IMG/VR virus record: IMGVR_UViG_3300023174_000053 | Span: 32,001 to 96,000 of that record | Length of the DNA stretch: 64,000 nt | Strand: one strand, 5' to 3' | From: a virus | Program-made: the position numbers and the translations under genes | The notes under the pieces: model-generated | The model's database searches: none | Seen by the model: only the letters and a program-made list of their open reading frames with translations | Told to the model about the DNA's origin: nothing | In this document: positions 2,733 through 28,990 of the stretch, in pieces | Position numbering within the stretch: the first letter of the stretch is position 1 | Layout of the letters: every line of letters begins with the position of its first letter

Positions 2733-3794
2733 TTAGAGTGCGTTCCCGCGAGGCAATACCTCATCAGGAAATACGAACCGTTCCCCTGGCTGGTCTATTG
2801 GTGCTAACCAAGCACGTAAGCCTTCGTTTAAAAGCACGTTTTTTGTGTAAAAGGTCTCGAATTCAGGGTCTTCAGCAGCACGAATCTCTTGACTCACGAA
2901 ATCATATGCACGAAGATTAAAGGCAAGGCCAATAATGCCAATGGAAGAAGTCCAAAGCCCCATGACTGGAACAAATAACATTAGAAAATGAAGAAATCTT
3001 TTATTACTAAAAGCAACACCGAAGATTTGCGACCAGAAACGGTTAGCAGTCACCATACTATAAGTCTCTTCCTCTTGAGTCGGTTCAAATGCTTTGAAGG
3101 TGTTTGCCTGGTCACTGTCCTCAAAGAGTGTATTCTCCACAGTAGCACCATGAATGGCACATAACAATGCTCCACCAAGAATACCTGCAACACCCATCAT
3201 ATGAAAGGGGTTGAGTGTCCAGTTGTGGAAACCCTGCAGGAATAGGAGGAACCTAAAAATCGCTGCAACACCAAAACTCGGCGCAAAGAACCAACTCGAT
3301 TGTCCGAGTGGATACATGAGAAACACACTGACAAAAACAGCAATAGGCCCAGAAAACGCAATAGCATTGTACGGTCTAATCCCTACTAAACGAGCAATCT
3401 CAAACTGACGAAGCATAAATCCAATTAGAGCAAAGGCACCGTGGAGAGCAACAAAGGGCCAAAGCCCTCCAAGTTGGAACCACCTGACGATATCCCCCTG
3501 AGCTTCAGGACCCCAGAGAAGCAGAAGAGAATGACCCATAGCGTCTGCTGGAGTACTAACTGATGAAGTAAGAAAGTTTGCACCCTCAAGATAGGAAGAT
3601 GCAATGCCGTGAGTGTACCAACTCGTAACGAAAGTTGTCCCAGTAAGCCAACCACCAAGAGCAAGATAAGCAGTGGGAAAAAGAAGAAGTCCAGACCATC
3701 CAACAAATATAAAACGGTCGCGTTTAACCCAGTCGTCCAAGACATCAAACCATCCTCTCTGTGAAACTGGTTGTGAAAGTGTAGATGAAACCAT
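2733..3794 (-). CDS. psbD: photosystem II D2 protein
   Basis: [47 protein letters not shown]; ATG at 3794. Confidence 0.98.
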
Positions 3795-3862
3795 AAGCAC
3801 CTTTAGTATTTCTCATATTTATGTTATCATATCATAACATAGAAGTCAATGAGTGCTTTTAT

Positions 3863-4651
3863 TCAGTTTTTGATTTTCATTCCAGGTATCCAATTATCAC
3901 CAGGGCATTCTATACTCATTTTAAGATTTCCACAACCATCATTCCACCACTTTTTGCCTTTCATTTTGTCTCTCCTTTTTTTTCTGGTTTCTTCACTTAC
4001 TACATTTCTTCTTCCAAGAACCCAACCATCTCCGGGGCATTCATTAGACATACAGAATTTATTTATTGATAGATTATGCCACCATTTTTTTACTTTCATT
4101 TTGTCTCTCCTTTTTTTTCTGGTTTCTTCACTTACATTTCTTGATTTTTCCCCCAATTTCTTTCGTGTTTCTTCCGAAACAATTTTTCCTTTATGCACCT
4201 TACTCAATTTAAGTTTATGTTCTTCGGAAATGGTTTTACCATACTGGGGATGATTTTCTCCTTTCGATGCTTCACTTATTTTCCTTATATTTTCTGGGGT
4301 ATGTTTTTTTCCATAAAAAGGATTATTTTCACCTTTTTTTGACTCACCCATTTTTATTTTAGTTTCTTCACTTCGTATAGCACCAGAAGTCCCCTCACCC
4401 CCATCAGTTTTATTTCTTAAAATGCCTGTCCCCAAATCCTTTCTACCAAAGACAGCAATCATATACTTTTCGTGTTTGAATGCTTCTTGTTCTGTTAAAT
4501 TTTGTTTGAGAAATATTATTCTCGATTTATCATTTGGTAAAATAATACTTTCTTTTTTACCTTTTTTATATGCTCTATTATCTTTCCCCTTACCAATATA
4601 ATAGGGGGTTCTGTCTTCTCTCAAATAGGCATAAGTGTAAAAATCATTCAT
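3863..4651 (-). CDS. free-standing homing endonuclease, GIY-YIG-like with NUMOD3 repeats
   Basis: YTYAY..PYYIGKG..R, LRNKTDGGEG, KGENNPFYGKKHT and SEETRKK repeats. Confidence 0.85.
   Translation of the reverse strand: MNDFYTYAYLREDRTPYYIGKGKDNRAYKKGKKESIILPNDKSRIIFLKQNLTEQEAFKHEKYMIAVFGRKDLGTGILRNKTDGGEGTSGAIRSEETKIKMGESKKGENNPFYGKKHTPENIRKISEASKGENHPQYGKTISEEHKLKLSKVHKGKIVSEETRKKLGEKSRNVSEETRKKRRDKMKVKKWWHNLSINKFCMSNECPGDGWVLGRRNVVSEETRKKRRDKMKGKKWWNDGCGNLKMSIECPGDNWIPGMKIKN
3958..4135. repeat. 135-nt-period internal duplication (43 nt identical: 3958-4000 and 4093-4135)
   Basis: Encodes VSEETRKKRRDKMKxKKWW...ECPGD twice. Confidence 0.9.
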
Positions 4652-5174
4652 AATTTTTGTATTTTTTTAGGTATAATACTGCGGATTGTAAGGTACTTAT
4701 ATTATCACCAACTAGTCCTAACATACGATTACAATTACTACAGAGCAACCCACGAACTTTACCTGTAGAGTGGTTGTGGTCTACATAAAGACTATTACTA
4801 TCTTTTCTACCATTAGTATTTGGATTTAAGCAAATAGCACATACCTCGTTTTGTTCTTGGAGGATATTTTCATACTGTTCCAATCCAAAATCTTTACCAT
4901 AAGTATACTTTAACATATAGTCCTTCTTCTCACTATAAGAAGGTCTCTTATCTCTATAAGTTTCACTATAACAACTCTTACATCTCTTATGACCTTTATA
5001 GTATTCTGATATTGGTTTTTCTACACTACATTTATTACAAGTAATATGAGTTTTACTAGACCAGTTTTCAGCATAAGTTTTTTCTTCGCATCTTATACAT
5101 CTTCTACGACCTTCTCTAAAATCAGAGGTAGGAAGTTCTTTGGTGCAAGTTCTACAAATCTTCGTGGTTCTCAT
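4644..5174 (-). CDS. Endonuclease VII-family HNH homing endonuclease (F-CphI-like)
   Basis: Q...CAIC...LYVDHNH.TGKVRGLLCSNCN..LG, N-terminal CxxC repeats; directly downstream of psbA. Confidence 0.88.
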   Translation of the reverse strand: MRTTKICRTCTKELPTSDFREGRRRCIRCEEKTYAENWSSKTHITCNKCSVEKPISEYYKGHKRCKSCYSETYRDKRPSYSEKKDYMLKYTYGKDFGLEQYENILQEQNEVCAICLNPNTNGRKDSNSLYVDHNHSTGKVRGLLCSNCNRMLGLVGDNISTLQSAVLYLKKYKNYE

Positions 5175-5261: not shown

Positions 5262-6552
5262 TCAACCGATTGTTGGTGCAGTAAGAGCAACTTGTGTTGT
5301 CTCAGCAGCAGCAAGGTCTAAAGGAAAGTTATGTGCATTCTTAAACTTTTCTTAACTATCTGGTATTACTACCAGGATTGGACTATATCATCACCATTTC
5401 TGGTGTCGGACGCTTATTCCTGTTATTAAGGGAACTGTATCCCTCAGGTAGTCTCTGAACCTTTCTCAGATGTATCTGAGACTTGGCTGCTGATTGTCCC
5501 GTAGGATTTCCAGCAATTCATCCGATTTAAAGAGCGCAAAGCACAACTTGACGCTCATGAACCACTTCCAGTCCCAAATTTGCCCGATTAAGCACATCTG
5601 CCCAAGTAGGAATCACTCTACCTTGATGGTCAAGAATTGATTGATTAAAATTAAGACCATTAAGATTGAAAGATGAAACTGCAATACCCATAGCAGCACA
5701 CCAGATACCAAATACTGGAAGTGCAGCAAGGAAAAAGTGAAGACTACGGGAGTTATTGAAGGAAGCATATTGAAAAATAAGACGACCGAAATACCCGTGT
5801 GCAGCAACTATCGAATAAGTTTCTTCTTCTTGGCCAAACTTATATCCATAATTTTGAGATACTTGTTCGGTAGTTTCACGAACAATAGAAGAAGTCACAA
5901 GGGAACCGTGCATTGCTGATGCCAAAGCACCACCAAAAACACCAGCAACACCTAACATATGAAATGGATTCATAAGAATATTATGCTCTGCAGAAAATAC
6001 AAGCATATAATTAAAAGTTCCAGAAATACCAAGAGGCATTCCATCACTAAAACTTCCTTGACCAAAGGGATAAATCAAGAATACTGCGGTTGCAGCAACA
6101 GCAGGAGCACTATAAGCAACTGCAATCCAAGGACGCATACCCAAACGGTATGAAAGTTCCCATTCCCGACCAAGATAGCACCAGACACCAATCAAAAAGT
6201 GGAATACCACTGCTTGATATGCCCAACCATTATAAAGTGCTTCGTCAATAGAAGCAGCATCCCAAAGATTATAGAGATGCAGTCCAATCGCATTAGAAGA
6301 AGGAACAACAGCACCAGAGATGATGTTGTTTCCCCACATTAGAGACCCAGCAACAGGTTCTCTAATGCCATCAATGTCTACAGGGGGATTTGCAATAAAT
6401 GCAATAATAAAAACCGAAGTAGCAACAAGAAGGCAGGGAATCATCAGAACACCGAACCAACCAACATAAAGACGATTATCGGTAGAAGTCACCCAGGAAC
6501 AAAATTCGTCCCAGGCATTAAAAGTTTTGCGTGTAGCAATTGTAGCAGTCAT
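5262..6552 (-). CDS. psbA: photosystem II D1 protein, spliced join(6552..5551, 5339..5262), 359 aa, divergent
   Basis: Exon 1 ends ...VVHER (codon 334); exon 2 reads [25 protein letters not shown]; D61, Y161, D170, E189, H190, H198, H215, H332, E333, H337, D342 and A344 present. Confidence 0.96.
5340..5550 (-). ncRNA. group I self-splicing intron in psbA (211 nt, no ORF)
   Basis: Exon 1 ends in U and the intron ends in G; removal restores HER|NAHNFP; core-like AATTGCTGGAAA, AATCAGCAGCC, TCAGAGACTA and GATATAGTCC elements. Confidence 0.92.
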
Positions 6553-6555
6553 TTT

Positions 6556-6696
6556 TCGTTAAAGGGGTAGGTAATAGTTCAGGAGGTGCTGAACGGTAAA
6601 AGTATTCCTACGCAACCCTCCTGCGTAGGTATAAGGACGGATTTTACTTGCCTATTCCTGGTGCGGCAAGGTTAAGAAATGTGTTGATTCCTTAAC
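6556..6696 (-). ncRNA. structured psbA 5' leader (PhotoRC-II-like RNA motif)
   Basis: Hairpins CCTACGCA/TGCGTAGG (loop GGAGGGT) and GTTCAG/CTGAAC (loop CACCTC) with complementary loops, plus CTTGCC/GGCAAG. Confidence 0.7.
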
Positions 6697-6704
6697 ATCT
6701 ATTT

Positions 6705-6733
6705 ATCATACCACTGGGTGCCAATGGTGTCAA
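6705..6733 (-). promoter_or_regulatory. sigma70-type promoter for psbA, overlapping a late-type GATAAATA
   Basis: TTGACA-17 nt-TATGAT with TGn extension. Confidence 0.8.
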
Positions 6734-12100: not shown

Positions 12101-12220
12101 TTAAAACACGCCAGGAAGAATCTGCCCAGTTGTGAGATATGTTCCAACTGCGATTACGAATCCAAGCATAGCAAGTCGTCCGTTTAAAATCTCTCCCTCA
12201 GGTGTAAATCCAAATTTCAT
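12101..12220 (-). CDS. hli: high-light inducible protein (39 aa)
   Basis: Hand-translated MKFGFTPEGEILNGRLAMLGFVIAVGTYLTTGQILPGVF; ExxNGRxAMxG motif. Confidence 0.92.
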   Translation of the reverse strand: MKFGFTPEGEILNGRLAMLGFVIAVGTYLTTGQILPGVF

Positions 12221-12231
12221 TTTAGTTCTCC

Positions 12232-12318
12232 TTAATAAGTTTCTGAAAGTTGATCAATAGAATGTGCAAGAAGCACAAAGAAGGCAATGCTTGTGATGGT
12301 AAAGATTGCTTCACTCAT
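12232..12318 (-). CDS. 28 aa membrane peptide between hli genes (MSEAIFTITSIAFFVLLAHSIDQLSETY)
   Basis: Hand-translated; tightly packed between two hli genes. Confidence 0.6.
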   Translation of the reverse strand: MSEAIFTITSIAFFVLLAHSIDQLSETY

Positions 12319-12527
12319 CATACTACACCAAAGAAGAGATGTCCAGTAATAGCATAAGATACAAGTCCAGCAATGATGCCAAGCATTGCCCAACGACCGT
12401 TAGCAAGTTCTGCTCGTTCGTTATGAGTCATCATACCATACTTGATGGCATCGGCATCAGAGATGTACATCTTGGGTTCTTTAGCAAACATGTTTTGTTG
12501 CCCGAACTCATTAGTCGTTACAGTCAT
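12318..12527 (-). CDS. hli: high-light inducible protein
   Basis: NMFAKEP, AELANGRWAMLG. Confidence 0.95.
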   Translation of the reverse strand: MTVTTNEFGQQNMFAKEPKMYISDADAIKYGMMTHNERAELANGRWAMLGIIAGLVSYAITGHLFFGVV

Positions 12528-12587: not shown

Positions 12588-13382
12588 TTACTTGCCTTCC
12601 CATCCTGGGGGAAGGGTTCCAAAGTAAGGATCATAATCAAATATTTCATTCCAATCAGAAATATCAACTGCTTGATTTCTCCAAAAATGCCACAATCCTT
12701 CATAACTTGATTTGTGAAATACATCTACATGCTCTGTATGAATGGAAGATCCCAATTCAATTCTATAAAGAAATAAAGGTATAGCAAAAGTATTTCCTGA
12801 GTTATAAATCAAATCATCCGCAACTGCTCTTGGTTTAACTCCATTATCAAGCTTATACTTATCACCACGAACGTGAAGATTGATAATTTTTTGTGCATGA
12901 TATCGAGTAATTAAATAGCAAGCAGTCGAAAAATCATTTACAAATCTGCGGTGCATCTTGAGATGGACTTGTGCAGGATTAATAATCGCAAGTTGAATGA
13001 CATCATAATCATAAGGAACTTTAGAAAAGAAATCTTTCCAAGTAAATCCCCAATGCTTTACCGTATCAAGATCACAATCATCTTCCATAATTAAGGCATA
13101 AGGTGAATCAGAAGTTTCCAAAAAATGTTGAAGGGCCTTCAGGTGCGATGTCACGCAACCAACCTCACTAGAGGACATATTATCAGGATAACGACCTTTA
13201 AGAATATCTCCAAGGTCTCTCCCGTCCCTTCCATCATAAGCAGAGATACGAGTATAATTTTCAATCTCCCAATACTTGAATTGATCCTCCATATATTCTC
13301 TTCTTTCTGGTTGCCCATCAAGATTTAAATAATAGATTGGACCAATACCTTGAAGTTTATAAGTTGATTTGTTTTTATCCAT
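12588..13382 (-). CDS. glycosyltransferase family 25
   Basis: IYYLNLD..ERR, EVGCVTSH, LIMEDD. Confidence 0.88.
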   Translation of the reverse strand: MDKNKSTYKLQGIGPIYYLNLDGQPERREYMEDQFKYWEIENYTRISAYDGRDGRDLGDILKGRYPDNMSSSEVGCVTSHLKALQHFLETSDSPYALIMEDDCDLDTVKHWGFTWKDFFSKVPYDYDVIQLAIINPAQVHLKMHRRFVNDFSTACYLITRYHAQKIINLHVRGDKYKLDNGVKPRAVADDLIYNSGNTFAIPLFLYRIELGSSIHTEHVDVFHKSSYEGLWHFWRNQAVDISDWNEIFDYDPYFGTLPPGWEGK

Positions 13383-13397
13383 TATTATAATTTATAT

Positions 13398-15131
13398 TTA
13401 AGAATTTAAAATTTGTTTTTTATCATAAGGTGAATGTATAATTCTGGATTTAAAATTAAATTGATCATCAGGATAATCTCCAGGTTTTGCAAATGAAGGA
13501 CTTAAAACATTAAAATTATCTATATTTTCTATTCTATATTTGTTTAAATAACTTTCATCATGAGCAACAGTGATAATTTCATTTTTTAAATCTTCTAATA
13601 TTCTATCATCTAATTCTTCAATCATATCGATGATATCTGGAATTTTTCCTCCCCACACACACCCCTGAAGATACAAATCGTCTTTTTGATCTTCTATTTT
13701 AACACATGCTAAAGACTTTTCATTTCTTTCAAATGGAAGTTTTTCTCCAGATGATGAAGTAAATTTACATAAATTTGAATTTTGGCAAGGATGCTGAACA
13801 CCAAAAAATGACTTACTTTCATCAAAAAATTCTTCATATCCAATAACTTCGGAACAACAATACATATCAGCATCAAAATATACATACCAATCATAATTTA
13901 AAAGTTGTTTTTTAATTTTTTTGAGTTCACCAAATCTTCTCAATCCACCAATACTATTATAAGTCAACTTATATCTATCAGAATAATCCGATATAGTTAT
14001 TTCATCATTTTCAGATACTGGTATTATTTTAATATTTTCTGGGAGATTTCCATCAAGATCACCATCAGTAAAGACGAAAAAATCTTTTTCACATTCAGGA
14101 ACAAAATATTCCATAAATGTTTCATAATACTTAGGGAAAAATTTAAGATAATTTCCACTACCAATAAAATTAATTGCTATTTTCTTTTTGGACATCATTT
14201 TTTCAATATTTGGTAAGTAATAGTTTTGAATGACTGTTTCCCAATCAAATTGTTTTGCATATTCCAATATTTCTTCCCTATGTGAAATTGAATATTCTCT
14301 ATTTTTTACAATTTGATTTTCAATATAATTTATATCATTTATTTTATCTTCAGAAATAATAGTAATAAACTCTTTATTTGGATCTAAATTTGCTTTTCCC
14401 CATTCACAAACAACTACACCAAGTCCAGCAGCAAGTGCTTCCATACAAACTAGAGGATGTGCTTCTCCATCAGAAAGAAGTACAAGATTTCCATAGTCAG
14501 TTAAATTTTCATACAAATATTGTTTGTCCCATTCTCCAAGATAATTTTTATTTTTATCAAATCTATCATCTCTAATATTTCCAGCATACCAAAGAGATTT
14601 AATATCTTGAAATAAAAATTGCCTTTTTCTGTGATCTATAGTTGCCAAATAAATTGATTTATGAAAAAATTTTGGATTTTTAGATATTTTAAAATTTTCA
14701 AAATTTACACCATTGGGATTCAAAAATAATTTATTAGATGGAATATCACATACATCTTTATAAACTTTATTGATACTATCAGAGAGTCCAAATAAATTAG
14801 GTTTAATTTTTGAATATACATCAAATACTCTTTCTTTATATGGACCCATCATTTCAGGTCTTTCTAAATATGCAAAGTGTGTTGTTATAGCGCATGGATA
14901 CTTTATATGGGGATAAAGATATACATAATCATCATAATGAATGTGAACAAAATCTGGATTAAATTTATCTATTTGTTCTATAACTTCATTTAAATTTTGT
15001 GTATTAATAATTTGAATTTCATGCCCCAACTTTTCTAAAGTTAGTTTATAATCCCATATCAAAATTTCTATTGCACCCCAACCAGTAGGTGGGATAGGCA
15101 TAATACCTGGACCGATTAAAGAAATTTTCAT
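13398..15131 (-). CDS. two-domain glycosyltransferase (GT4-like N-terminal + GT6-like C-terminal)
   Basis: PIPPTGWGAIE, DGEAHPLVCMEALAAG; FIGSGNY, FVFTD, YFDAD, GCVWGG, HDESYLNKY. Confidence 0.85.
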   Translation of the reverse strand: MKISLIGPGIMPIPPTGWGAIEILIWDYKLTLEKLGHEIQIINTQNLNEVIEQIDKFNPDFVHIHYDDYVYLYPHIKYPCAITTHFAYLERPEMMGPYKERVFDVYSKIKPNLFGLSDSINKVYKDVCDIPSNKLFLNPNGVNFENFKISKNPKFFHKSIYLATIDHRKRQFLFQDIKSLWYAGNIRDDRFDKNKNYLGEWDKQYLYENLTDYGNLVLLSDGEAHPLVCMEALAAGLGVVVCEWGKANLDPNKEFITIISEDKINDINYIENQIVKNREYSISHREEILEYAKQFDWETVIQNYYLPNIEKMMSKKKIAINFIGSGNYLKFFPKYYETFMEYFVPECEKDFFVFTDGDLDGNLPENIKIIPVSENDEITISDYSDRYKLTYNSIGGLRRFGELKKIKKQLLNYDWYVYFDADMYCCSEVIGYEEFFDESKSFFGVQHPCQNSNLCKFTSSSGEKLPFERNEKSLACVKIEDQKDDLYLQGCVWGGKIPDIIDMIEELDDRILEDLKNEIITVAHDESYLNKYRIENIDNFNVLSPSFAKPGDYPDDQFNFKSRIIHSPYDKKQILNS

Positions 15132-16024
15132 TTAAAAGAAATCCAATTAATTAAATTTACTTGAGGTTTCCACTCAAAAACATTTTTAATTTTATCTATA
15201 TTTGCAAGTGTTGTTTTTGCTTCTCCAGATCTTGGGGGAATAAAAACATAATTATCGGAAATAATTTTAGCAATTTCTATTATAGAAATATTTTCTCCAG
15301 TTCCAACATTATAAACTTGTCCATAATATTTCTCATCAATCTCTTTTGTTGCCGCAACTATATTTGCATTCACTACATCATAAACATGAACAAAATCTCT
15401 TTTTTGCATCCCATCATCTACAATTGTCAATGATTGATTATTTCTTTTTTGTTTTTGAAAAATACCAATCACTGGGGCATATTGTCCTGTTGTAGGACAT
15501 CTTTCTCCATAGACATTAAAATACCGAAGTATAATTGTCTTCAATCCATACAAATTAGTATACATCTTACAGAGTTTCTCTCCAGCAATTTTAGATACCG
15601 AATAGGGATTTAAACAATCATCAGGTTGATTTTCAACATTTGGGTATGGATTCATTCCATATCCAGAAGAAGTAGAAGAATAAATGACTTTTTTTACTCC
15701 TGCTTCTCTTGCACATTGAAGAACAGTACATGTTCCAACAGCATTTTTTGTTACTGCTTCAATAGGATTTAAGATTGCTGGTTGAAGTCTTGATTCTGCG
15801 GCAAGATGAAAAACATAATCAACTCCATCATAAAGAGATCTAGTTTTTTTATAATCACAAATATCATACTTATAATTTTGCGATTTATCATTCCAATAAA
15901 ATTTTTCATTACATTCAGAACTTTCATTATCAATTGTGATAACTTTATGTCCCTGTTTGATTAATTCATCAACAAGATTTGAACCAATAAATCCTGCTCC
16001 ACCAGTCACTAAACATTTAGTCAT
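15128..16024 (-). CDS. NAD-dependent nucleotide-sugar epimerase/dehydratase
   Basis: VTGGAGFIGS, YSVSK, LRYFNVYG, RDFVHV. Confidence 0.92.
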   Translation of the reverse strand: MTKCLVTGGAGFIGSNLVDELIKQGHKVITIDNESSECNEKFYWNDKSQNYKYDICDYKKTRSLYDGVDYVFHLAAESRLQPAILNPIEAVTKNAVGTCTVLQCAREAGVKKVIYSSTSSGYGMNPYPNVENQPDDCLNPYSVSKIAGEKLCKMYTNLYGLKTIILRYFNVYGERCPTTGQYAPVIGIFQKQKRNNQSLTIVDDGMQKRDFVHVYDVVNANIVAATKEIDEKYYGQVYNVGTGENISIIEIAKIISDNYVFIPPRSGEAKTTLANIDKIKNVFEWKPQVNLINWISFK

Positions 16025-16757
16025 AATTTTCCATTTCTTGTTTTTTTAATTTTATAGATTCATATATTGAAGTCTTCAATTTAGTAGAAGAATACTCATG
16101 AGATTCTCTATCCAACCAAACAATTTGAATTGAAATATTTTCTCCTGTATAAGGTCTTGTTTTATAATCAGTACCTAAAAACCTTATATTATATTCCCCA
16201 CTTCTCAAATAGTCAAGATATTCTTCTTCTACTTTATAAGTAACCACATCATCAATATATTTGATGCTTCTAAGAATCTCCATCCTTTCTTCAACACTTT
16301 GAACTGGTTGAAGTTTATATGATCGTTCTACTGATGGATCTTCATGAAGTGCAACTGTTAAATGATTACAATACAATTTAGCATCCTTAAACATGCGGAT
16401 ATATCCAGGATGAATTACATCAAAAGCACTCGCAATAATACCTTTTTTTAATGAGCAAGTTTTTTTCCACTCTTCTACATTAATACCCTTATCATCAATA
16501 AACAGATGCGCGTGTGGTTTCACATGCATAATAAGTTGGTGATGATAAACTCCCCAAGCACGTAACTGCTCTTTGGTGAGATCTGAATGATCCACACCAC
16601 TCACGCATCCACGAGCAGTCATAATTATAATTTTATGTCCACAATTAAAAAGACGATTAATCTCTTTAACAACTGTTAAATCGGGAAGTGCGTTTTGATA
16701 CTGACTCCCCTCAACAGAAGTACAGATAGTTCCATCTAAATCAAAACAATAAATCAT
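16017..16757 (-). CDS. HAD phosphatase fused to TagD/HldC-like cytidylyltransferase
   Basis: FDLDGT...FIDDK, then FDVIHPGY...FLGTDY. Confidence 0.85.
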   Translation of the reverse strand: MIYCFDLDGTICTSVEGSQYQNALPDLTVVKEINRLFNCGHKIIIMTARGCVSGVDHSDLTKEQLRAWGVYHHQLIMHVKPHAHLFIDDKGINVEEWKKTCSLKKGIIASAFDVIHPGYIRMFKDAKLYCNHLTVALHEDPSVERSYKLQPVQSVEERMEILRSIKYIDDVVTYKVEEEYLDYLRSGEYNIRFLGTDYKTRPYTGENISIQIVWLDRESHEYSSTKLKTSIYESIKLKKQEMENYD

Positions 16758-17257
16758 ACTACTCCATGCAAAAAGATTTGATGAACACACTCAACGATTC
16801 CATAATCTCTACTGTCAATATGATAGTCCCAGAGAGCATTATTGGCAATACTTCTTGCTTTATTTGTAAAGTTAAAACCAGTCAAAATACCATAAGAAAT
16901 CGTGTTACTCTCACAATACTTAATACAGTTAATAATATTTTTAGATTCACCACCAGAACTAATTAAGATGCAAAGAGTTTCTGGTGTTGAATAATATTCC
17001 AGAAATTTTCGATATGCATTCTCCATTCCAAAATCATTAATAAAACAAGTCAACATTGATGGATCAGAAAACACCAAAGAATTCTTATTATGAAATTTTA
17101 CATAATCCTGAGAGATATGTGATGCAACGGAATTGCTTCCACCATTACCAAGAATGATAATATTATTATACTTGTTGAAGGCATCTTTAAATTTAGAAAA
17201 TTGTTCTTCAATATGAGCACCATGAAGTGCATCAATATAATTTGAAAAAGGATTCAT
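16754..17257 (-). CDS. gmhA: SIS-domain phosphoheptose isomerase (GmhA-like)
   Basis: GNGGS..ASH, NDFG, ISSGGESKNI, YGIVECVH. Confidence 0.8.
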   Translation of the reverse strand: MNPFSNYIDALHGAHIEEQFSKFKDAFNKYNNIIILGNGGSNSVASHISQDYVKFHNKNSLVFSDPSMLTCFINDFGMENAYRKFLEYYSTPETLCILISSGGESKNIINCIKYCESNTISYGILTGFNFTNKARSIANNALWDYHIDSRDYGIVECVHQIFLHGVV

Positions 17258-18201
17258 ATTTTTCTACCAACAACTCCATTAGATTCTACATTTATTTTAA
17301 CAGATTGGTATGGAACAGTCAAGGAATCCTTTTCAGAAAACACGAGAAAAAATCCACCATTACCAGCACCACATAGTTTATGAGCAAGAACAGTTTCATT
17401 TTCATTTAATTGTTCGTCTATTTCTTTTATAGTAGAACTCTCAGTAATTGTGGAACTTGTTTTCTTTTTTTGAATCCAACTTTTATTCAAATAATTAAGA
17501 AACTTGCCATAATCTTTTTGGAGAAGAGCATCATATGCCTTATCTACAGTTGCAAGAAGTGGTTTAGACTTATCAATGTTATCAGTAACATCTTTCAAAA
17601 CATTTTTGGAATTGCGAGTTACTCCAGTAAAGACAAGATGAGCATCATATATTTTAAAGAATTCTGTTGGAAGAAAATCATATTTTACGATTCCACCTTT
17701 CTTAAATTCCATTCTTTTGAATCCACCAATACCACATCCATAAGGATCTTGATATCCACAATAAGGATTCATTTCTAGTTCTAATTGATATGCAAGTTCG
17801 CAGATTTCAATATCAGTCATCTGCAAATCATTAAATATAGAAATTGATTTAATTAAACTAATAATATAAGACGAAGATGATGCCAATCCACTTCCCTGTG
17901 AGTAAGCATCACTCGTCATAGAAACATTAATTGGGTGAACTCCAAAATAATTGAGAACAATTCTTACCAATTCATTTTCAATATCTCCAATAAATTCCGT
18001 TTCTTCTCTTTTAGAGTAATTAATAATATATTTGCTCTGATTGTAATTATACCCAATTTTATCCTCATGAAGAGTAATATAGGTTTTTAAATCACAAGTA
18101 AAACTAATTACAGATCCATACCCATACTTTTCTACAAAATATGGATTATCTGTTGAACCACCAAATAAAGAGACTCTTAGTGGACAAGATGATATAATCA
18201 T
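17254..18201 (-). CDS. GHMP sugar kinase (HddA-like heptose-7-phosphate kinase)
   Basis: PLRVSLFGGSTD, GSGLASSS, GYQD, KLCGAGNGGF. Confidence 0.88.
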   Translation of the reverse strand: MIISSCPLRVSLFGGSTDNPYFVEKYGYGSVISFTCDLKTYITLHEDKIGYNYNQSKYIINYSKREETEFIGDIENELVRIVLNYFGVHPINVSMTSDAYSQGSGLASSSSYIISLIKSISIFNDLQMTDIEICELAYQLELEMNPYCGYQDPYGCGIGGFKRMEFKKGGIVKYDFLPTEFFKIYDAHLVFTGVTRNSKNVLKDVTDNIDKSKPLLATVDKAYDALLQKDYGKFLNYLNKSWIQKKKTSSTITESSTIKEIDEQLNENETVLAHKLCGAGNGGFFLVFSEKDSLTVPYQSVKINVESNGVVGRKI

Positions 18202-19163
18202 AAATTTATAATATTTTCAATATCATTTACATATTTTTTCATTTTTTCAACCAAGGAAAATGATTCAATTCCATACTCTCTAATTTCATTCCTTCTTTCC
18301 AAAGATACTTTTCTATTTTCAAATATTTTTTTAGAAATATATTCTAAATCATTCAACTTTTCATTAGGAATTACCTCAATAAAATTTAAACTAGTATCAA
18401 GTTCATTTACATTTTGCTCGGAAACTACAACTCCCAAACCAAGAATTAGAGCTTCCATTATAACCATTGCTGTGCCATTTTCACCATCACTAAGATGAAC
18501 AAGATTTGCATATGATGTAATTATACCATTACTTTTCAATTCCCCCAAATAATTTTTATTTTCTGGGTCAAAAGATGTTCCAGGAAAATACTTACCAACA
18601 AAATCTATTCCTGGAATAGATTGATATAGATATTGTTTTTTCCTTTGATGAATTTGACCAAGATAAAGAGATTTATTTGGATTTTCGCATTCACTATTAT
18701 ATCTAAATTCAGAAACTAGGGGTCCTTCTCTTAAATGAAAAATTCTATCTTTTGGAAATCCATTTTCAATAAAAAAATCATAATTTTTTGGAGAAACAGA
18801 AAAATTATAAAATTTATTTCCATTATTTAAAATATAGTCAAAAATTTTATCATATCCATCACGTCTATGCATATTTACCTGTTCAATATATGGGTAATGA
18901 CTGCTAAACAAAATTGGACATTTTACTTTATCATACAAATAATCAACAACAGGATAATGTTGATCATAATGAAAATGAATTACATCATAATCACCATTTA
19001 AACATTCTGCAGTAATCTCATTCATATCTGGAGTATTCAAAATATCCCCCTCATGCCCTAATTCACTTAAAGCACAAGATCTATACCAAATAGCTCTTTC
19101 TACTGCACCCCATCCTGTTGGTGGGATAGGCATTATTCCTGGACCGACTAAACAAATTTTCAT
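18198..19163 (-). CDS. GT4-like glycosyltransferase
   Basis: MKICLVGPGIMPIPPTGWGAVE, paralogous to the N-domain of 13398-15131. Confidence 0.82.
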   Translation of the reverse strand: MKICLVGPGIMPIPPTGWGAVERAIWYRSCALSELGHEGDILNTPDMNEITAECLNGDYDVIHFHYDQHYPVVDYLYDKVKCPILFSSHYPYIEQVNMHRRDGYDKIFDYILNNGNKFYNFSVSPKNYDFFIENGFPKDRIFHLREGPLVSEFRYNSECENPNKSLYLGQIHQRKKQYLYQSIPGIDFVGKYFPGTSFDPENKNYLGELKSNGIITSYANLVHLSDGENGTAMVIMEALILGLGVVVSEQNVNELDTSLNFIEVIPNEKLNDLEYISKKIFENRKVSLERRNEIREYGIESFSLVEKMKKYVNDIENIINL

Positions 19164-19981
19164 TTTGTTAACTCTGTAAATAACTCCATTTGTTTCCAAT
19201 TATTTCTATAAAATATTTCAAAAAATTCTGGTTTATTTTTTACAAGATAACCCAAAGCAATTTGTTCGTTATTTAAATTATTTTTAGAAATCATATCATT
19301 AAAAAGAATATTTTCAATTTCACCTAAAATTTTGGGGTGAATGTTTTTATGCATACCAAAAAAAGTACCACAAACGAATGACCTAGCATCATAAAAGTAA
19401 CTTCTATCTAAAGAATTTGAAGATACAAGATCAGAATAAGATTCCATATTTTGTTGTATAAGAAATTTTTCTCCCAATTCATCCAATTCTTTATTAGCAG
19501 CAACTCCTGGAAATTCTTGTTCCAAATTAAATCCATCAAAAAATCTAGATGCTCCTGCATCAATCCAAAAAAATAATTCACTATTAAAATCATTATTTTG
19601 GATTGATTTTTCAATCCATTTAAATTTAGAATACTGAATAATAGAATAAAGAGAATAATTACACTCTATTCTATCCAAAACTGTCATTTTATTTTTATAA
19701 TCATCGGATTGAAGAATTGAATCCATTTTATCTTTTAAGTAATAATATGGAATTTCGTCAAGTCTTTGGGAAATAATCTTAGTATTTTGATCTTCTCTAT
19801 GACTTTTTACAAAATCCACAAGACTCTCTTCTACAAAAATAACCATAGGGCATTTTAATTTTAACGTCACAGAAAACCATTGAAGATATTCATCCCAGGT
19901 TCTTCCATCCATATTTTCCCTATTAATATTAAATAAAGCCGTGGTAATTGTTATATTTTTCATAATTAAATTCTTTCCCAA
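19160..19981 (-). CDS. HtrL/WlaTC-like glycosyltransferase
   Basis: TITTALFNI, FFWIDAG, NNEQIAL. Confidence 0.7.
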   Translation of the reverse strand: MGKNLIMKNITITTALFNINRENMDGRTWDEYLQWFSVTLKLKCPMVIFVEESLVDFVKSHREDQNTKIISQRLDEIPYYYLKDKMDSILQSDDYKNKMTVLDRIECNYSLYSIIQYSKFKWIEKSIQNNDFNSELFFWIDAGASRFFDGFNLEQEFPGVAANKELDELGEKFLIQQNMESYSDLVSSNSLDRSYFYDARSFVCGTFFGMHKNIHPKILGEIENILFNDMISKNNLNNEQIALGYLVKNKPEFFEIFYRNNWKQMELFTELTK

Positions 19982-20784
19982 TTTTTAGGTAACTGATCTT
20001 TTAAAATTAAATGTTCCAATTCTGTCCCATACCATTTTTTTGGAGCAATTACTTTTTTATTCTTATTTTTTGACAACCAAGCCCCCCACCAAGAAAATGT
20101 ACTGTTTGCCATAATAAAATCATTACACATTGCCATCAAACAAAGATCAAAATGACCTTTATATATTCTATCAGGTGTATCAACAAAAAATGAATTTCTA
20201 TTTGTAAAAATTTCTTGTTTTTTGCACCATTCAATATCATCAGAAAAAATTAAAATATCTCTACCTTCAAATTTTTCCAAGGCAGTTTTATAATAATCTA
20301 AACTACAAACAGGATGACGATTCAAATGATGTGGTAGTAAAAAATCACCTCTTCTTACAGTCAAAGCAACTGGTTCATTTTTTAATATATCCTTTCCATA
20401 TGATAAACATTTTTCAACAATAAAATCTTTAAATTCATAATTTTTTCTAATTTTATCTTCTACGTGTTTAAAATATTTTTCACTTTCAAAATATCCAATC
20501 AAAGTTACATTATCTGGACACTCATCAAGCAATTCTTCACAAAAATGATATTGATTTAATTCAACAATATCACCATCAACAAATCCATATTTTCCTTCAA
20601 ATTCAGACATTTTAAAACATCCTTGAAGTTCATGGTGTTGAAAACCACCAAAATCATTATATATGGAATGGTCTGGAATGCAATAATCATACTTACGATG
20701 TGCTGCAATTCCTAAAAGTGCAGCACACTGAAACATTTGATTTCCTAGTCTTCCTATTTGTCCTAAATGATTAAATCCTATCAT
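19966..20784 (-). CDS. GT11 alpha-1,2-fucosyltransferase-like
   Basis: GRLGNQMFQ, VRRGD, FSDD, NSTFSWWGAWL. Confidence 0.92.
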   Translation of the reverse strand: MIGFNHLGQIGRLGNQMFQCAALLGIAAHRKYDYCIPDHSIYNDFGGFQHHELQGCFKMSEFEGKYGFVDGDIVELNQYHFCEELLDECPDNVTLIGYFESEKYFKHVEDKIRKNYEFKDFIVEKCLSYGKDILKNEPVALTVRRGDFLLPHHLNRHPVCSLDYYKTALEKFEGRDILIFSDDIEWCKKQEIFTNRNSFFVDTPDRIYKGHFDLCLMAMCNDFIMANSTFSWWGAWLSKNKNKKVIAPKKWYGTELEHLILKDQLPKNWERI

Positions 20785-20789
20785 AATTT

Positions 20790-21557
20790 TTATTTGTCAT
20801 AATATTCTCTAAATTGATGAACTAATGGATTTGTTTTTGTTCTCCAATTAGCATCTCTGGTACATTCAATTATATCTGGATTGAATACTTCTTCTTCTCC
20901 TACCATAGCAAATAGAGTTGGTATCAAAGCATCATGGGCACACATAGCATACCATTCATATGAAAGTTTATCAAGTATTCCATCGTACTCTCTAAATTTT
21001 TTCAATGCTTTTAAAAAAGTTTCAACTTCAAATACACAAGGAGATGCACCCCATCTTGTTAAAATTTTTGCACCATCAACAGATGCAAGAACATCACGAT
21101 ACCCCTTTGGCGAACAACAATTAATTCTTGATCCCAAAAGTTTAGCATCATCTGGAATTGTCAATTTTCCTCTGATTAAAGCATCAGGATCCATCATAAC
21201 CATCCAATCTGGATATTTACAATATTCTATTGCTCTTTCCAATCTATCCAAAACAGTCAGAGCACACTTTTTGATTACATTTTGATAATAATCTTCTCTA
21301 AAATTTCCTGGACCTGCACCATTAGGTCCTGCTGTTATTTTAAATATGTCTGACATTGTATCTTCTTCCAAAGATACAAATAAATTATCATAGATATCTT
21401 TTAAATATGAGAAATCCAATCCACCATCAGAAACCAAATAAATTAAAGAATCTGGGTAATGAATTCTTAATTGTTGAACAGAATAATCAACCGCACGTTG
21501 TTCATTAAAACAACTATACATAAATCCTAATGTTTTCATATTAATTAAATTTTGCAA
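20790..21557 (-). CDS. putative GT-A fold glycosyltransferase
   Basis: LVSDGG and MMDPD (DxD) motifs, island context. Confidence 0.6.
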   Translation of the reverse strand: MQNLINMKTLGFMYSCFNEQRAVDYSVQQLRIHYPDSLIYLVSDGGLDFSYLKDIYDNLFVSLEEDTMSDIFKITAGPNGAGPGNFREDYYQNVIKKCALTVLDRLERAIEYCKYPDWMVMMDPDALIRGKLTIPDDAKLLGSRINCCSPKGYRDVLASVDGAKILTRWGASPCVFEVETFLKALKKFREYDGILDKLSYEWYAMCAHDALIPTLFAMVGEEEVFNPDIIECTRDANWRTKTNPLVHQFREYYDK

Positions 21558-22149
21558 TTATTTCTGAAGGATATTCACTCTCTGATTTTAATTTTTCTAT
21601 TAAAGATTTATCAAATTCAGAAGGATCAATCCACCAATCTTCAAAAGGATATTCTTTTCCTTCATATCCAGATTGTTGGACATACACGTTAGAGCAAAGT
21701 AAAAAATATCCAAAAGATTCTAAAATACTTCTCTGTTGTTCTCTATATTCATCTCCATAAAGATATCCGTCATGTTCAATTGTGATTACTTTAAATCTAT
21801 ATTCATCAAGTGGTAAAATTTTAAGAACATTAAGACTTAAAGTATCTACATCCAAAGAAAGATAATCAATATTTTTAGGAAATTCATATTCTTCAAATAC
21901 TTGTATATAATCAACACCAAGAGCATCTTCATTCAAATGAACACCACTTTTTCTAGTTCCATAACTTTCATTATATGAACTTTCGATCTCAACACTTATC
22001 GATGACCAATCTAGGTCTTGAAAATAAAAAGTATTATTGAAAATGATAGAATGGCAACTTCCAATATCTACACAATATCCATTTTTTTTAAAATTTAAAA
22101 TATTTGCAACAAATTGATCTTGCTTTGCATCAGAATAAAAACGATTCAT
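21541..22149 (-). CDS. FkbM-like methyltransferase
   Basis: VDIGS, NNT, IDYLSLDVD, ITIEHD, EDWW. Confidence 0.8.
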   Translation of the reverse strand: MNRFYSDAKQDQFVANILNFKKNGYCVDIGSCHSIIFNNTFYFQDLDWSSISVEIESSYNESYGTRKSGVHLNEDALGVDYIQVFEEYEFPKNIDYLSLDVDTLSLNVLKILPLDEYRFKVITIEHDGYLYGDEYREQQRSILESFGYFLLCSNVYVQQSGYEGKEYPFEDWWIDPSEFDKSLIEKLKSESEYPSEIIAKFN

Positions 22150-22235
22150 AATTTACTTCAAATTGCTTATAATTGTTTCTAAAGTATGTATAAACTTTTC
22201 ATTGGTCCAAGAATTATACTTTTTTAAAAATTTTA

Positions 22236-23006
22236 TTAAAATCCATCTTCATGCCACCCTTCAACGTTGAGATCAAATGGAAAATAATAAATATTATTTT
22301 TTGGCCAAATAAAATCTATTCCTTTTCTTGGAAAAGATTTAAAATATTTTGGCATTACCTCTGTACTAACTTGTTTGGCATACTCCCAATTTACTGCCCC
22401 ATCATACAAATATTTTTCTTGGTCATTTACCATATCAACAACTCTATCATCAAATCTACTACAATAATAAGCACCAATATATGTTTCTGATCTAGTGAAC
22501 AAGTTCATATATGAAGACATATTATTGCGGTTAATTCCCATTTTCTGACACAAATCATTTTGTTCAAATGGTATATCAAACAAATTAATCATATCTTCTT
22601 TATATCCCATAAAAACATGATCTCTCGGATGGAACAGATGTGCAAAAATATTTCCACAAATAAAAATTGTTTCCTTCTTCTTATTTTCAATAAAGTAGTT
22701 AATCATATTATCCATACCTTGATGATTAAACTTTTGATCACTTCTCATCTTAATAATGTATTTTGCTTTAGATGCTTTTACACCATTTAAAGATGTAGTT
22801 AGTTGCATATTAACGTTTCCTACACCAGAATATGGAGGATAAACTGAATTTCTTACGAATTTAACTCTATCCAATTTATATTCTTCTGTCTTGTCTACGT
22901 CCCAACAAGAAATAATAATATTGTCAATTAAATCAATTTTAAGATACAAATCAATAACTTCATCTGTGAATTCTGTATATGGACCTTGAATAACTATGTC
23001 TATCAT
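22236..23006 (-). CDS. WavE-like LPS synthesis protein
   Basis: IVIQGP, IISCW, NVNMQ..SLNG, KMRSD, HPRDH. Confidence 0.8.
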   Translation of the reverse strand: MIDIVIQGPYTEFTDEVIDLYLKIDLIDNIIISCWDVDKTEEYKLDRVKFVRNSVYPPYSGVGNVNMQLTTSLNGVKASKAKYIIKMRSDQKFNHQGMDNMINYFIENKKKETIFICGNIFAHLFHPRDHVFMGYKEDMINLFDIPFEQNDLCQKMGINRNNMSSYMNLFTRSETYIGAYYCSRFDDRVVDMVNDQEKYLYDGAVNWEYAKQVSTEVMPKYFKSFPRKGIDFIWPKNNIYYFPFDLNVEGWHEDGF

Positions 23007-23007
23007 A

Positions 23008-24066
23008 TTATTTTAAAAACTCTGTTAGATTATCGGAATTTCTTGGAAGATTAATTGATTCACATGCTGGATAGGGATTACTATTAGCAAAATCATTGAT
23101 AATAACTCGTTTACAGTGAGGAAGTCCCATAATAAGTGTATCATATGGAATATTATACTTGTACATCTCATCTATTGTCAACTCTCTAAGTCTTTCTGGT
23201 CTACTTGTTGTCAAAATAATTTTAACTTTTCCAGAATCATAAAGTTTCCTTAAAAGAGAAATATTACTATTCAGTGGTTCTCCAGTTCCAACATATGGTG
23301 GAAAGTGTATTGAAGAATTAAAAACTAGTGTTCCATCAATATCTACAAATAAACAACGGTACTGACTTTTATATTTGTTCCATGCATCAAGAGTTCCCCA
23401 ATCTTTAAAGTTAGTAGTTGACAATCCATTAAATCTAGATCCAGAAAGAATCATTTCAAAAATAATATTGCTAATATAACATTCTCCATCAAGATCTTCA
23501 ATTTGCTCATATGCTTTACAGAATTCTTTGGCATCTTTAAATCCATATCCACCAACAGAAAAAGTAGAACTAATAACTTTTTTCTCAACTATATTAGTTA
23601 CAATACCATTAATGTCAAATTCAACATAACTTTTTGTTTTTGCATTAATATCATCCATGTTATTCAAATCAAAAAATGCAATTTGATTCTCATCATCGAC
23701 TAATTCACATTCATAGTAACCATCAGAGTCTTTAATAAAAATAAATCCTTCAATATTTTCTAATTTAATTGCATTATAAACTGTTTCAGACTGAGAGGAA
23801 GTTTGATTATCCAAAAATATTATTTTTGACTTATTTTCAATTCCACATTCTTCAAGTTCTTCATGAAATCCTTTTGAAAAACCATACTTAATTTCATGCT
23901 CATTTAGGCATATAAAATAGATGGCATCAAAAAAGTCTAGATTAATTCCAGATATTGCATCCATAACCATAAACTTGTTTTTCATTGGATGAGTTAACAT
24001 CCATTTAGGTTTCATATTTGGAAATCTAGATGATTTCCCTGCCATTGGTACAATTAAATTTTTCAT
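23008..24066 (-). CDS. sugar nucleotidyltransferase-like domain fused to a HAD domain
   Basis: IVPMAGKSSRF..PKW, DWGT; FVDIDGT, INDF. Confidence 0.82.
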   Translation of the reverse strand: MKNLIVPMAGKSSRFPNMKPKWMLTHPMKNKFMVMDAISGINLDFFDAIYFICLNEHEIKYGFSKGFHEELEECGIENKSKIIFLDNQTSSQSETVYNAIKLENIEGFIFIKDSDGYYECELVDDENQIAFFDLNNMDDINAKTKSYVEFDINGIVTNIVEKKVISSTFSVGGYGFKDAKEFCKAYEQIEDLDGECYISNIIFEMILSGSRFNGLSTTNFKDWGTLDAWNKYKSQYRCLFVDIDGTLVFNSSIHFPPYVGTGEPLNSNISLLRKLYDSGKVKIILTTSRPERLRELTIDEMYKYNIPYDTLIMGLPHCKRVIINDFANSNPYPACESINLPRNSDNLTEFLK

Positions 24067-24868
24067 ATAGATCAGTTTTTAAAATGCTACTATTAAGTAT
24101 ACTTTTTTGTTTTGAATTAATCAAGTAAGGTTCTATTCGCAATAGATTTAAAGAATCTAATATTTTAAATTCATCACTTTCAATATAATTTTGATACCTA
24201 AAATATAAATTTTTCCAAATATATTGATACGATTGTTTGATTCTTATATCATCAATTTTATTTAGTTTCAAATTCCAAAAATAATACAAATCTTGTTTCA
24301 ATTTAACCATATCACACAAGAAACTATCAATATAAGAATCTAAAAAATCTATAAAAAATAATCTATTTTTATGAAATAAAATATTTGAGAAGGTTAAATC
24401 ACCATGACAAAAAGTTTTTGGTATTGATACAATTTCTTTACTCAAGATATTATTTTTTATAAAATTCAAATAACTACCATATTTTGTTTTTTCTTCCAAA
24501 CTTTCAATCTTTGATATTAATTTATTTTTAATATTAGATATTTTTATATTAGAAATTAAAAAATCAAAATATTCAAATAAAGTATGAACAACAAAATCAA
24601 TATTGTTAATACAAGAAGTAGAAAAATATTCTTCAAAAGAAAGTCCAGAGATATACTCCATATCAAAATAATACAAAGAATCAAAATTTGAGTTATAAAT
24701 TTTTGGAGTATCTATATTTTTTAATATAAAATTTGAAAATAATTTTTGCTTCTCAATTTGGGATGATAATCTGGAATTATACTCCATCGAAGATGAATAT
24801 TTTCTCAAACTTAAGTTATCTAATAATTCAAGTTTGCATCCAGATAATCCAGATTTTAAATTACTCAT
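24026..24868 (-). CDS. APH/choline-kinase-like phosphotransferase
   Basis: GLSG, MEYI, CHGDLTFSNI, FIDF. Confidence 0.82.
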   Translation of the reverse strand: MSNLKSGLSGCKLELLDNLSLRKYSSSMEYNSRLSSQIEKQKLFSNFILKNIDTPKIYNSNFDSLYYFDMEYISGLSFEEYFSTSCINNIDFVVHTLFEYFDFLISNIKISNIKNKLISKIESLEEKTKYGSYLNFIKNNILSKEIVSIPKTFCHGDLTFSNILFHKNRLFFIDFLDSYIDSFLCDMVKLKQDLYYFWNLKLNKIDDIRIKQSYQYIWKNLYFRYQNYIESDEFKILDSLNLLRIEPYLINSKQKSILNSSILKTDLYEKFNCTNGREII

Positions 24869-24876
24869 GAATGAAA

Positions 24877-25701
24877 TTAATATCCATTTAAATGCAAATA
24901 AGTTACTATTCTTTGCAAATAAAAATCTTTAGAATCATACAAATATTCTTTTCCATAATTCAAATTAAATTCTTCTATTGAAGATTCATGCAATGGATGC
25001 ATTCCTGATGGATGATCATAAGTAGAATCTGGAATATTTCTATCATTCACTGTTTTAATTATATCTTCACCAAGTTCTTTCATATTTAATCTTTTTAAAA
25101 TTTGATTAGTAACATATAAAAATACTAAACTAGTTGGATGATGTGGGATTAAAAATAAAAGTTTATTTGAAAGATTTTCTTCTATAAAATTTGAAACTTT
25201 AATATCTGTCAATGTTTCTTTTTGTTTTAAAATTTGTATACTTTTATCAAACCTATTTTTATAATCCCAGTTTATTTTATTTTTATGATATAAATTGAGT
25301 ATATCATTTCTTTTCAATCCCTTTGAAAGTAAATTCTCAATTACTTCTCCACCAAACCATATGTTTATATTTTTTCCTTTTTGAACAAGTGGCCACATAG
25401 CAGAGGAAAAAATGTAAGGATATGCTATTTTAATAGCATCATTTTTTACATAAGATCCAATAGATCCTTCAACACTTGGATCCGTAGAATAACACCCATG
25501 AACTATTCGCAAAGGATGATATATAAACAGATCCGCATTTTGAATATCATTCATAGGAATTTCACAATTATTTTTAATTAATTGCCAATTAGTATAATGT
25601 TTCATCTCATAAGTTTTATTAAACTCATCACTTTGAGATAGATAATACATTATTCCATCATTTTGGCAATTTCCTATCAATAAGCAATTTAATTTTTTCA
25701 T
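24877..25701 (-). CDS. WcbI-like polysaccharide biosynthesis protein
   Basis: IGNCQ, ADLFIY, LFLIPHHPT. Confidence 0.75.
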   Translation of the reverse strand: MKKLNCLLIGNCQNDGIMYYLSQSDEFNKTYEMKHYTNWQLIKNNCEIPMNDIQNADLFIYHPLRIVHGCYSTDPSVEGSIGSYVKNDAIKIAYPYIFSSAMWPLVQKGKNINIWFGGEVIENLLSKGLKRNDILNLYHKNKINWDYKNRFDKSIQILKQKETLTDIKVSNFIEENLSNKLLFLIPHHPTSLVFLYVTNQILKRLNMKELGEDIIKTVNDRNIPDSTYDHPSGMHPLHESSIEEFNLNYGKEYLYDSKDFYLQRIVTYLHLNGY

Positions 25702-26669
25702 TTTAATATAGAAAGCAAACTATTGACTCTATTGATATAGGTATGATTTTCTTTTACATATTTCATACCATCTAAAATTAACTTTTCATTTTCTCTATTT
25801 TTCATTGCTTCATAAAATAACTCTGATGTATCATCACAATAAACACAATTACCATCAAGTTCTTTGTATATCTCTTCTGAATTAGTCAATCCAAGATGAC
25901 CATAACTTATATTTTTAAAAACTCTACAAGTAAGAAGTTTTTGTTTTAAGTGCTGAAGTCCTCTAATATCAATTCCAAGAAGAGATTCTTGGGTTCTTCG
26001 AATTACTTCTTCATTTGAAAGGGGATTTGTCCAAGGATCATTATGAACAAACCCAATATTATTTTTTTTACATTCTTCTATGAAAGGAAGAAAATTTGAA
26101 TAATTTTCACAAATGCCAAATGAAGATATTGTTCCACAATAATAAACATTTGGTTCTCTTGGAATGTAAATATCATCCTCATTGAATTCATCTGGAAGTT
26201 TATTAGTTGCCCAACTTATATAAACTTTATCATAATCACTCATCTCATAATCAACATAATCATTTTTGACCTTAACTTTTTCAAGTGTTTTGGGGACAAA
26301 ATAACAAGCAGGTCCAATTTTAATTGCAGTGTTTTTATCTAAAGAATATTCTTGAATATGATCTTTAAAGTCAACTGCTGCCATTCGAATATCAATATAC
26401 CTTTCAGCATCTTGATATTTAATAGGAGATGGGCAATACATAATCAAATAACAACTTGTATTATTGATAGGTATTTTTTTATCTGCAAATCCTTCACCAA
26501 CAAAAAGACAATTTGTAAAATCAAATTCTATTGGATAATCATCATCATGAAACCAGTAGACATCATACCCAAGATGTTTAAATGTCCTATAATATGCCTC
26601 ATGAACATACGAATGTGTATGAGAGTATAATGGATGTCCCCAAATAACTACTTTAGAATATTTCATCAA
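25698..26669 (-). CDS. putative glycosyltransferase
   Basis: HTHSYVH, CRVFKNISYG, VKENHTYINR. Confidence 0.7.
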   Translation of the reverse strand: MMKYSKVVIWGHPLYSHTHSYVHEAYYRTFKHLGYDVYWFHDDDYPIEFDFTNCLFVGEGFADKKIPINNTSCYLIMYCPSPIKYQDAERYIDIRMAAVDFKDHIQEYSLDKNTAIKIGPACYFVPKTLEKVKVKNDYVDYEMSDYDKVYISWATNKLPDEFNEDDIYIPREPNVYYCGTISSFGICENYSNFLPFIEECKKNNIGFVHNDPWTNPLSNEEVIRRTQESLLGIDIRGLQHLKQKLLTCRVFKNISYGHLGLTNSEEIYKELDGNCVYCDDTSELFYEAMKNRENEKLILDGMKYVKENHTYINRVNSLLSILK

Positions 26670-28934: not shown

Positions 28935-28990
28935 AAAGTTGTAATCCAACGATTGTTTTGAAGTGTCCATTTAGTGACTATTTAGATTAG

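Follow-up and report, generated by a model that had tools for sequence, protein, structure and literature searches.

A highly divergent, apparently intact and probably Group 4 D1 gene split by a group I intron in a T4-like cyanophage record

We consider it likely that the divergent psbA gene described here is an intact gene of a T4-like cyanomyovirus, laid out as in phage S-PM2, and that it encodes a mosaic Group 4 (G4) D1 protein which has long resided in phage genomes and would replace the host D1. Few known proteins are as conserved as D1, and W105, Q187, H195, F211, N247, W278 and residues 291-294 are treated as fixed. In this D1, a constrained and abundant protein, all of those sites are replaced at once with the catalytic residues untouched, and its relatives carry the modules of change singly.

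The source is a 171-kb IMG/VR virus record (IMGVR_UViG_3300023174_000053) with an estimated completeness of 89%; the window, the 64,000-nucleotide stretch that was analysed (positions 32,001 to 96,000), is part of it. The gene content is that of a T4-like cyanophage, with nrdA/B and primase most similar to those of Synechococcus phages. For nrdA/B, the most similar named phage comes from a Dishui Lake assembly (PMC10611076), and the closest cellular D1s are those of Cyanobium and lake MAGs; the inferred habitat is a lake. Elsewhere in the window, a pair of adjoining hits to the chlorophyll a/b-binding (hli) family lies at 12137-12431 on the minus strand, and a long run of minus-strand open reading frames of very low GC (23-31%) extends over about 13000-29000. 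The features of the psbA locus, in the direction of transcription, are:

6705-6733, minus strand: promoter-like site, TTGACA-17-TATGAT with a TG extension, 5' of psbA (11 of 12 matches; consensus match only)
6594-6684, minus strand: PhotoRC-II RNA motif in the psbA 5' leader (RF01717, 47.4 bits; gathering score 39)
5551-6552, minus strand: psbA exon 1, D1 residues 1-334 (PF00124, 291 bits)
5340-5550, minus strand: group I intron of 211 nt, after codon Arg334 (RF00028, 87 bits)
5262-5339, minus strand: psbA exon 2, residues 335-359 (H337, D342, A344 and a C-terminal extension) and stop codon
5234-5254, minus strand: intrinsic terminator-like hairpin and T run, directly 3' of the psbA stop codon
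4644-5174, minus strand: free-standing HNH/endonuclease VII-type homing endonuclease, F-CphI homologue (PF02945, 76 bits)
3863-4651, minus strand: NUMOD3-repeat open reading frame between psbA and psbD (PF07460, 80 bits)
2733-3800, minus strand: psbD, ordinary phage-type D2 (92-96% identity to 80 viral D2s)

With its own promoter-like site, PhotoRC-II leader, predicted self-splicing intron and terminator, followed by the endonuclease and psbD, this psbA would be of the expressed type. A PhotoRC-II motif likewise lies upstream of psbA in the relative L315. The protein encoded at 4644-5174 is classed, from its fold, its similarity to F-CphI and its position downstream of an intron-bearing psbA, as a free-standing homing endonuclease of the F-CphI type. 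The N-terminus of the NUMOD3 open reading frame resembles a GIY-YIG domain by eye, with no Pfam match to that domain, and this frame probably encodes a second homing endonuclease.

The unspliced psbA reading frame (6552-5527) runs on after ...VVHER into QVVLCAL and a stop codon, an abnormal end that arises because a group I intron interrupts the gene. Exon 1 ends in U, the predicted P1 pairing is GAGCGU/GCGCUC with a U.G pair at the 5' splice site, and the terminal base of the intron is G. Removal of the 5550-5340 segment restores the reading frame, and exon 2 then ends ...TIG before the stop codon. The spliced product of 359 amino acids aligns one to one, without gaps, to solved D1 chains (E 1e-185, vs 1e-48 to D2 chains). 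On these sequence features the interruption is identified as a group I intron and is predicted to be self-splicing. It is absent from the sequence-only reading that preceded this analysis, though the interval given there for the gene (5262-6552) equals the span of the spliced gene.

The intron is almost identical to those of S-PM2 (L314) and L004, whereas the exons on either side share only about 78% identity, which suggests that the intron homed recently into a strongly diverged psbA and that the exons underwent little co-conversion. The psbA of L315 (3501-5710 of a 173-kb ENA contig; D1 88-92% identical to the studied D1) lies in three exons: an insertion of about 890 nt with a 225-aa HNH open reading frame follows His215, and a group I intron (RF00028, 91 bits) lies near residue 337, two to three codons from the site in the studied gene. 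Many cluster members are open reading frames of 221-222 aa ending ...AMHRELCPC, so the His215 insertion is common.

When compared with the consensus of 80 cellular D1s, all 20 substitutions listed in the sequence-only reading proved correct: A55N, F93L, P95N, W105A, G110W, P111A, F182Y, Q187S, H195N, F211A, N247S, W278L, F285C, T286A, S291A, T292V, M293S, A294S, F300L and M331V. Three of them, F182Y, T286A and F93L, occur in 79%, 44% and 34% of 80 viral D1s, respectively, and so are not distinctive. Eleven further changes had been missed (C47V, I96L, E98D, L102I, L114A, F124W, L223I, E231V, V281F, S309H and M328L), among which C47V, I96L, E98D, L102I, L114A, L223I and E231V fall at invariant sites. 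W105A and G110W, described earlier as an apparent compensatory Trp swap, always occur together but trace to a single origin, so that a compensatory role is putative.

The 14 functional residues that had been reported as intact (D61, Y161, D170, E189, H190, H198, H215, S264, H272, H332, E333, H337, D342 and A344) are all present, as is H118, the ChlZD1 ligand. The protein thus has the Mn4CaO5 ligands D170, E189, H332, E333, D342 and A344 together with YZ/H190 and D61 of a standard water-oxidising D1. Rogue D1 (G2) and ChlF, or super-rogue D1 (G1), are marked by loss of Mn-cluster ligands; because every such ligand is kept here, the earlier exclusion of both holds. Glu130, the high-light (D1:2) state, was also read correctly, and the picocyanobacterial D1:1 markers S124, Q130, L151 and S152 are absent.

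To place these changes on a scale, a reference set of 118 cellular G4 D1s was used (the 80 best GTDB matches and 38 picocyanobacterial copies), among which 253 positions are at least 99% invariant. The studied D1 is changed at 24 of the 253; in the cellular set no protein exceeds 3, IMG/VR viral D1s (n = 80) have a median of 5, and G3 D1s have 18-27 such changes. P0010 represents a 95%-identical cluster made up of 263 metagenomic sequences. The a-b-loop residues are kept in all 14 cluster members that were inspected, as are most of the other odd residues. Among 512 GenBank phage records with psbA, the best match has 82% identity; because near-identical records may be concealed by the database tools, its absence from cultured phages is only as sound as those collections. 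That the gene is phage-resident, as had been proposed, agrees with the contigs inspected from its divergent clade, all of which are viral (lysozyme, Mom, HNH, petF, speD, talC), and with the absence of any cellular D1 of more than 84% identity from the GTDB species genomes and 101 picocyanobacterial genomes. The lineage was found here only in metagenomes, JGI 3300051216, 3300028581 and 3300027977 among those that contain the clade, and a literature search for phage D1s with these replacements turned up no description. In related contigs (L165), glycosyltransferase and methyltransferase genes adjoin psbA.

The changes fall into four modules. The first runs from helix A through the a-b loop to helix B (C47V, A55N, F93L, P95N, I96L, E98D, L102I, W105A, G110W, P111A, L114A), and the second, Q187S and H195N with the common F182Y, lies in the lumenal c-d helix beside YZ and P680. 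The third is on the QB-tail and lipid (SQDG) side (F211A, L223I, N247S, W278L, V281F), and the fourth extends from the lumenal half of helix E into the C-terminal region (F285C, T286A, S291A, T292V, M293S, A294S, F300L, S309H, M328L, M331V). Assignment of modules to cofactors was based on five residues documented in papers and on helix periodicity; an AlphaFold2 model from a 22-sequence alignment had a mean pLDDT of 41 and was unusable. W105 of D1, called 'strictly conserved', connects CarD1 with ChlZD1 (10.1101/109447). The keto group of ChlZD1 accepts a hydrogen bond from the I96 backbone, with H118 as the axial ligand of this chlorophyll (PMC7184784). F182 is situated between YZ and PD1 (PMC13567741), F211 contacts the QB tail (PMC4030317), and W278 lines the SQDG-tail or 'QD' site near a quinone channel (PMC10300377). 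By helix periodicity, positions 110, 114 and 118 would share one face of helix B. On this basis the a-b block is a remodelled ChlZD1/CarD1 pocket. The a-b loop cluster of the earlier description is therefore this pocket and not a surface for extrinsic subunits.

The modules also occur separately in viral D1s, so the protein was probably assembled by intragenic recombination. Divergent viral clusters P0010, P0017, P0016/P0022, P0018, P0083/P0064 and P0066 share a common clade, an AT-rich psbA and subsets of the modules, and the P0010 cluster alone unites them all. P0017 has the a-b module without those of the c-d helix and helix E; P0016, P0022 and P0018 have Q187S, H195N and the helix-E block without the a-b module; other relatives have F211A or W278L alone. 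Within the 90% cluster, some members look recombinant: P0132 is ordinary in its c-d and helix-E regions despite having the a-b block, and P0129 retains the ordinary F211 and W278. The nearest relative of the studied D1 shifts along the protein. Intragenic recombination has long been known for psbA and is probably the simplest explanation of this residue pattern, by which D1 looks mosaic.

The divergence does not extend to the partner protein D2. The D2 of this phage is 92-96% identical to 80 viral D2s and departs from them at only four of the positions with at least 97% conservation (A77S, I259V, W266F and F270L in standard numbering); F270 of D2 is listed as a QA-tail contact (PMC4030317). 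Phages with D2s that are 94-95% identical to this one have ordinary D1s, only 81-82% identical to the studied D1. An ordinary D2, and ordinary D1s beside nearly the same D2 elsewhere, indicate that the divergence is specific to D1, and co-divergence with D2 was rejected. A phage-encoded PsbI partner was looked for and was not found.

The sequence-only reading had proposed phylogeny against the D1 groups as a check. In the trees, the studied D1 and P0010 were joined with 99-100% support inside a divergent clade of metagenomic D1s (SH-aLRT 99% in one tree, 86-89% in two others) that is placed in G4; the split between Group 3 (G3) and G4 had 100% SH-aLRT, with the studied D1 on the G4 side. G80 and F158, the G4 states, are present, and residue 286 is Ala instead of Thr, as it also is in 35 of 80 ordinary viral D1s. 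When the tree was rooted on G3, the divergent clade took the basal position within G4. Its nesting with ordinary viral and picocyanobacterial D1:2 proteins was, however, not rejected in an AU test (constrained tree 7 lnL units better, p-AU 0.66). As the test does not uphold the basal position, this is probably a long-branch effect, and the deep pre-G4 origin at which the G3-rooted tree hints was not upheld.

The signature of the G3 protein, D1', is A80, L158 and A286 (Sicora 2009, as cited in PMC4408414). Picocyanobacterial paralogues with this triad form a separate G3 clade, and only A286 of the triad is present in the studied D1. Outside the N-terminal tail, 7 of 18 G3-diagnostic positions are changed in the studied D1 (286, 291-294, 309 and 328; P = 0.008), with residues at 292, 293 and 328 that differ from those of G3. 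In a tree of residues 270-344 alone, the studied D1 was nearer to D1:2 than to G3. We read the helix-E parallel with D1' as convergence on a single patch or else as a partial exchange long ago; we do not take it as membership of G3.

Similar residues were observed in other D1s. Viral D1 clusters P0083 and P0064 (L257:6001-7080; P0064 n = 124) have the full A80/L158/A286 triad; they are in G4 by the trees, are without other G3-diagnostic residues and look like convergent, D1'-like phage D1s. In Synechococcus sp. UW140, as the MAG GCA_945905385.1 is named, a D1 of the D1:1 type encoded by a cellular gene at L256:6001-7077 (Q130, S124, L151, S152) with tRNA-synthetase neighbours has a helix-E block that resembles the viral one (F285C, T286A, S291A, M293S, F300L, S309H), which may reflect phage-host exchange.

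Taken together, the favoured account is that of a water-oxidising, Glu130-type standard G4 D1 whose lineage would long have resided in phage genomes and would have drifted far from all cellular D1s while under strong purifying selection. Intragenic recombination between co-infecting phages and accelerated substitution would have assembled the mosaic. During infection the phage D1 would replace host D1 in the host PSII and support oxygen evolution, with altered surroundings of the ChlZD1-carotenoid photoprotective site, of YZ/P680 and of quinone exchange. The changes may reflect adaptive retuning or compensated drift, under a stem-branch selection regime that may have been adaptive or relaxed, and the retuned redox properties, turnover or extrinsic-subunit binding proposed in the sequence-only reading would be hypothetical consequences.

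One alternative is relaxed constraint or decay, in which a psbA no longer needing to work piles up changes. It would account for the many changes at otherwise invariant sites and for a psbA dN against distant relatives that is 2.5-3 times that of psbD, but the Nei-Gojobori (NG86) dN/dS against the P0010 gene is 0.07-0.08 at a dS of 0.63-0.65, far from the value of 1 that had been named as a sign of decay, and 0.04-0.07 in each segment tested. For the a-b module the ratio was 0.089 against the more distant P0017; ratios to relatives outside the P0010 cluster are unreliable, as dS is near saturation. The frame is also intact, all cofactor and Mn-cluster ligands are kept, and the odd residues are maintained across independent metagenomic contigs. 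By these ratios the studied D1 is under strong purifying selection, and the retention of odd residues in a 263-member cluster together with low dN/dS excludes both decay and sequencing error, the other artefact that had been raised; we regard decay as highly improbable. Pressure of mutation towards AT is likewise an unlikely cause, as many of the replacements, to Ala, Ser, Val or Trp, need two to three base changes on inspection. Also unlikely, though less so than decay, is that the gene was captured recently from a host, as the G3 D1' or the D1 of an unsampled cyanobacterium, or that it is, as a variant, a chimera that took helix E from a G3 gene. A286, A291, S294 and H309 are indeed shared with picocyanobacterial G3 paralogues, positions 292, 293 and 328 are also changed, with the significant overlap of sites given above, the cellular D1:1-like protein P0048 bears a similar helix-E block, and the G3-rooted tree is in keeping with such a source. 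Set against this are the small number of shared diagnostic residues (5 of 20), the differing residues at 292, 293 and 328, the G4 states G80 and F158, the 270-344 tree, the AU test and the lack of a close cellular D1 in the genomes searched; few shared residues and both tree placements led us to reject a G3 origin as the main explanation. The third-position GC of the studied psbA is 0.25, near the phage background, with 0.36-0.47 in ordinary viral psbA and at least 0.80 in picocyanobacterial psbA. A value that matches phage and not host argues for long residence in phage genomes and against recent host origin.

A changed job for the protein is a somewhat stronger contender, which we still think doubtful: the phage D1 might modify or throttle host PSII, for example by giving short-lived centres that lack the ChlZ/carotenoid protective site, or centres that, like those with D1', suit low-oxygen lake layers. 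Loss of the 'strictly conserved' W105 with remodelling of the ChlZD1 pocket, the helix-E changes that parallel D1', and the full D1' triad in the sister viral clusters P0083 and P0064 favour it. The case is purely inferential, however, and an ordinary function is just as compatible with the retention of H118 and of all electron-transfer and Mn ligands. In the same tentative vein, the protein could represent a phage-only D1 class with a re-engineered ChlZD1-carotenoid site, from which Trp105, otherwise strictly conserved in D1 and D2, has been dropped, and with convergence on D1' at the donor side and helix E; if true, its PSII centres would be tuned to the short life of the infected cell or to low-oxygen lake layers and not to long-term protection. 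On the favoured reading of an intact, long-resident phage D1, this protein and the relatives with single modules amount to a natural set of mutants with which to study what the ChlZD1/CarD1 pair does, the YZ/P680 surroundings and the quinone-exchange side of PSII. Some viral D1s also form a long-evolving clade of their own instead of being nested within the diversity of hosts, as a recent marine survey had reported for the phages of that habitat (10.64898/2026.07.15.738324).

In comparison with S-PM2, the locus has an identical gene order (psbA with a group I intron, F-CphI, psbD), and the split psbA is 1291 nt long in the studied phage and 1292 nt in S-PM2, with the intron site after HER334 shared. 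The introns are about 95% identical by eye, and the downstream endonuclease has 39% identity to F-CphI (E 2e-25) at the same position. Exon identity, in contrast, is just 78% for the DNA and 81% for the protein, identity values group the S-PM2 D1 with ordinary viral D1s, and the second open reading frame between psbA and psbD is unrelated, with no similarity to ORF178 of S-PM2. With the standard G4, high-light D1:2 (Cardona et al. 2015, PMC4408414) the studied D1 shares the full set of Mn4CaO5 ligands, E130, G80, F158 and a place on the G4 side, but differs by its 24 invariant-site replacements, which include W105A, Q187S, H195N, F211A, N247S, W278L and the 291-294 block. With the microaerobic D1' of G3 it has 5 of 20 diagnostic residues in common and lacks 15, A80 and L158 among the missing, and the trees separate the two with 100% support; the helix-E and C-terminal positions 291-294, 300, 309 and 328 are nevertheless altered in both, five of them to the residue of G3.
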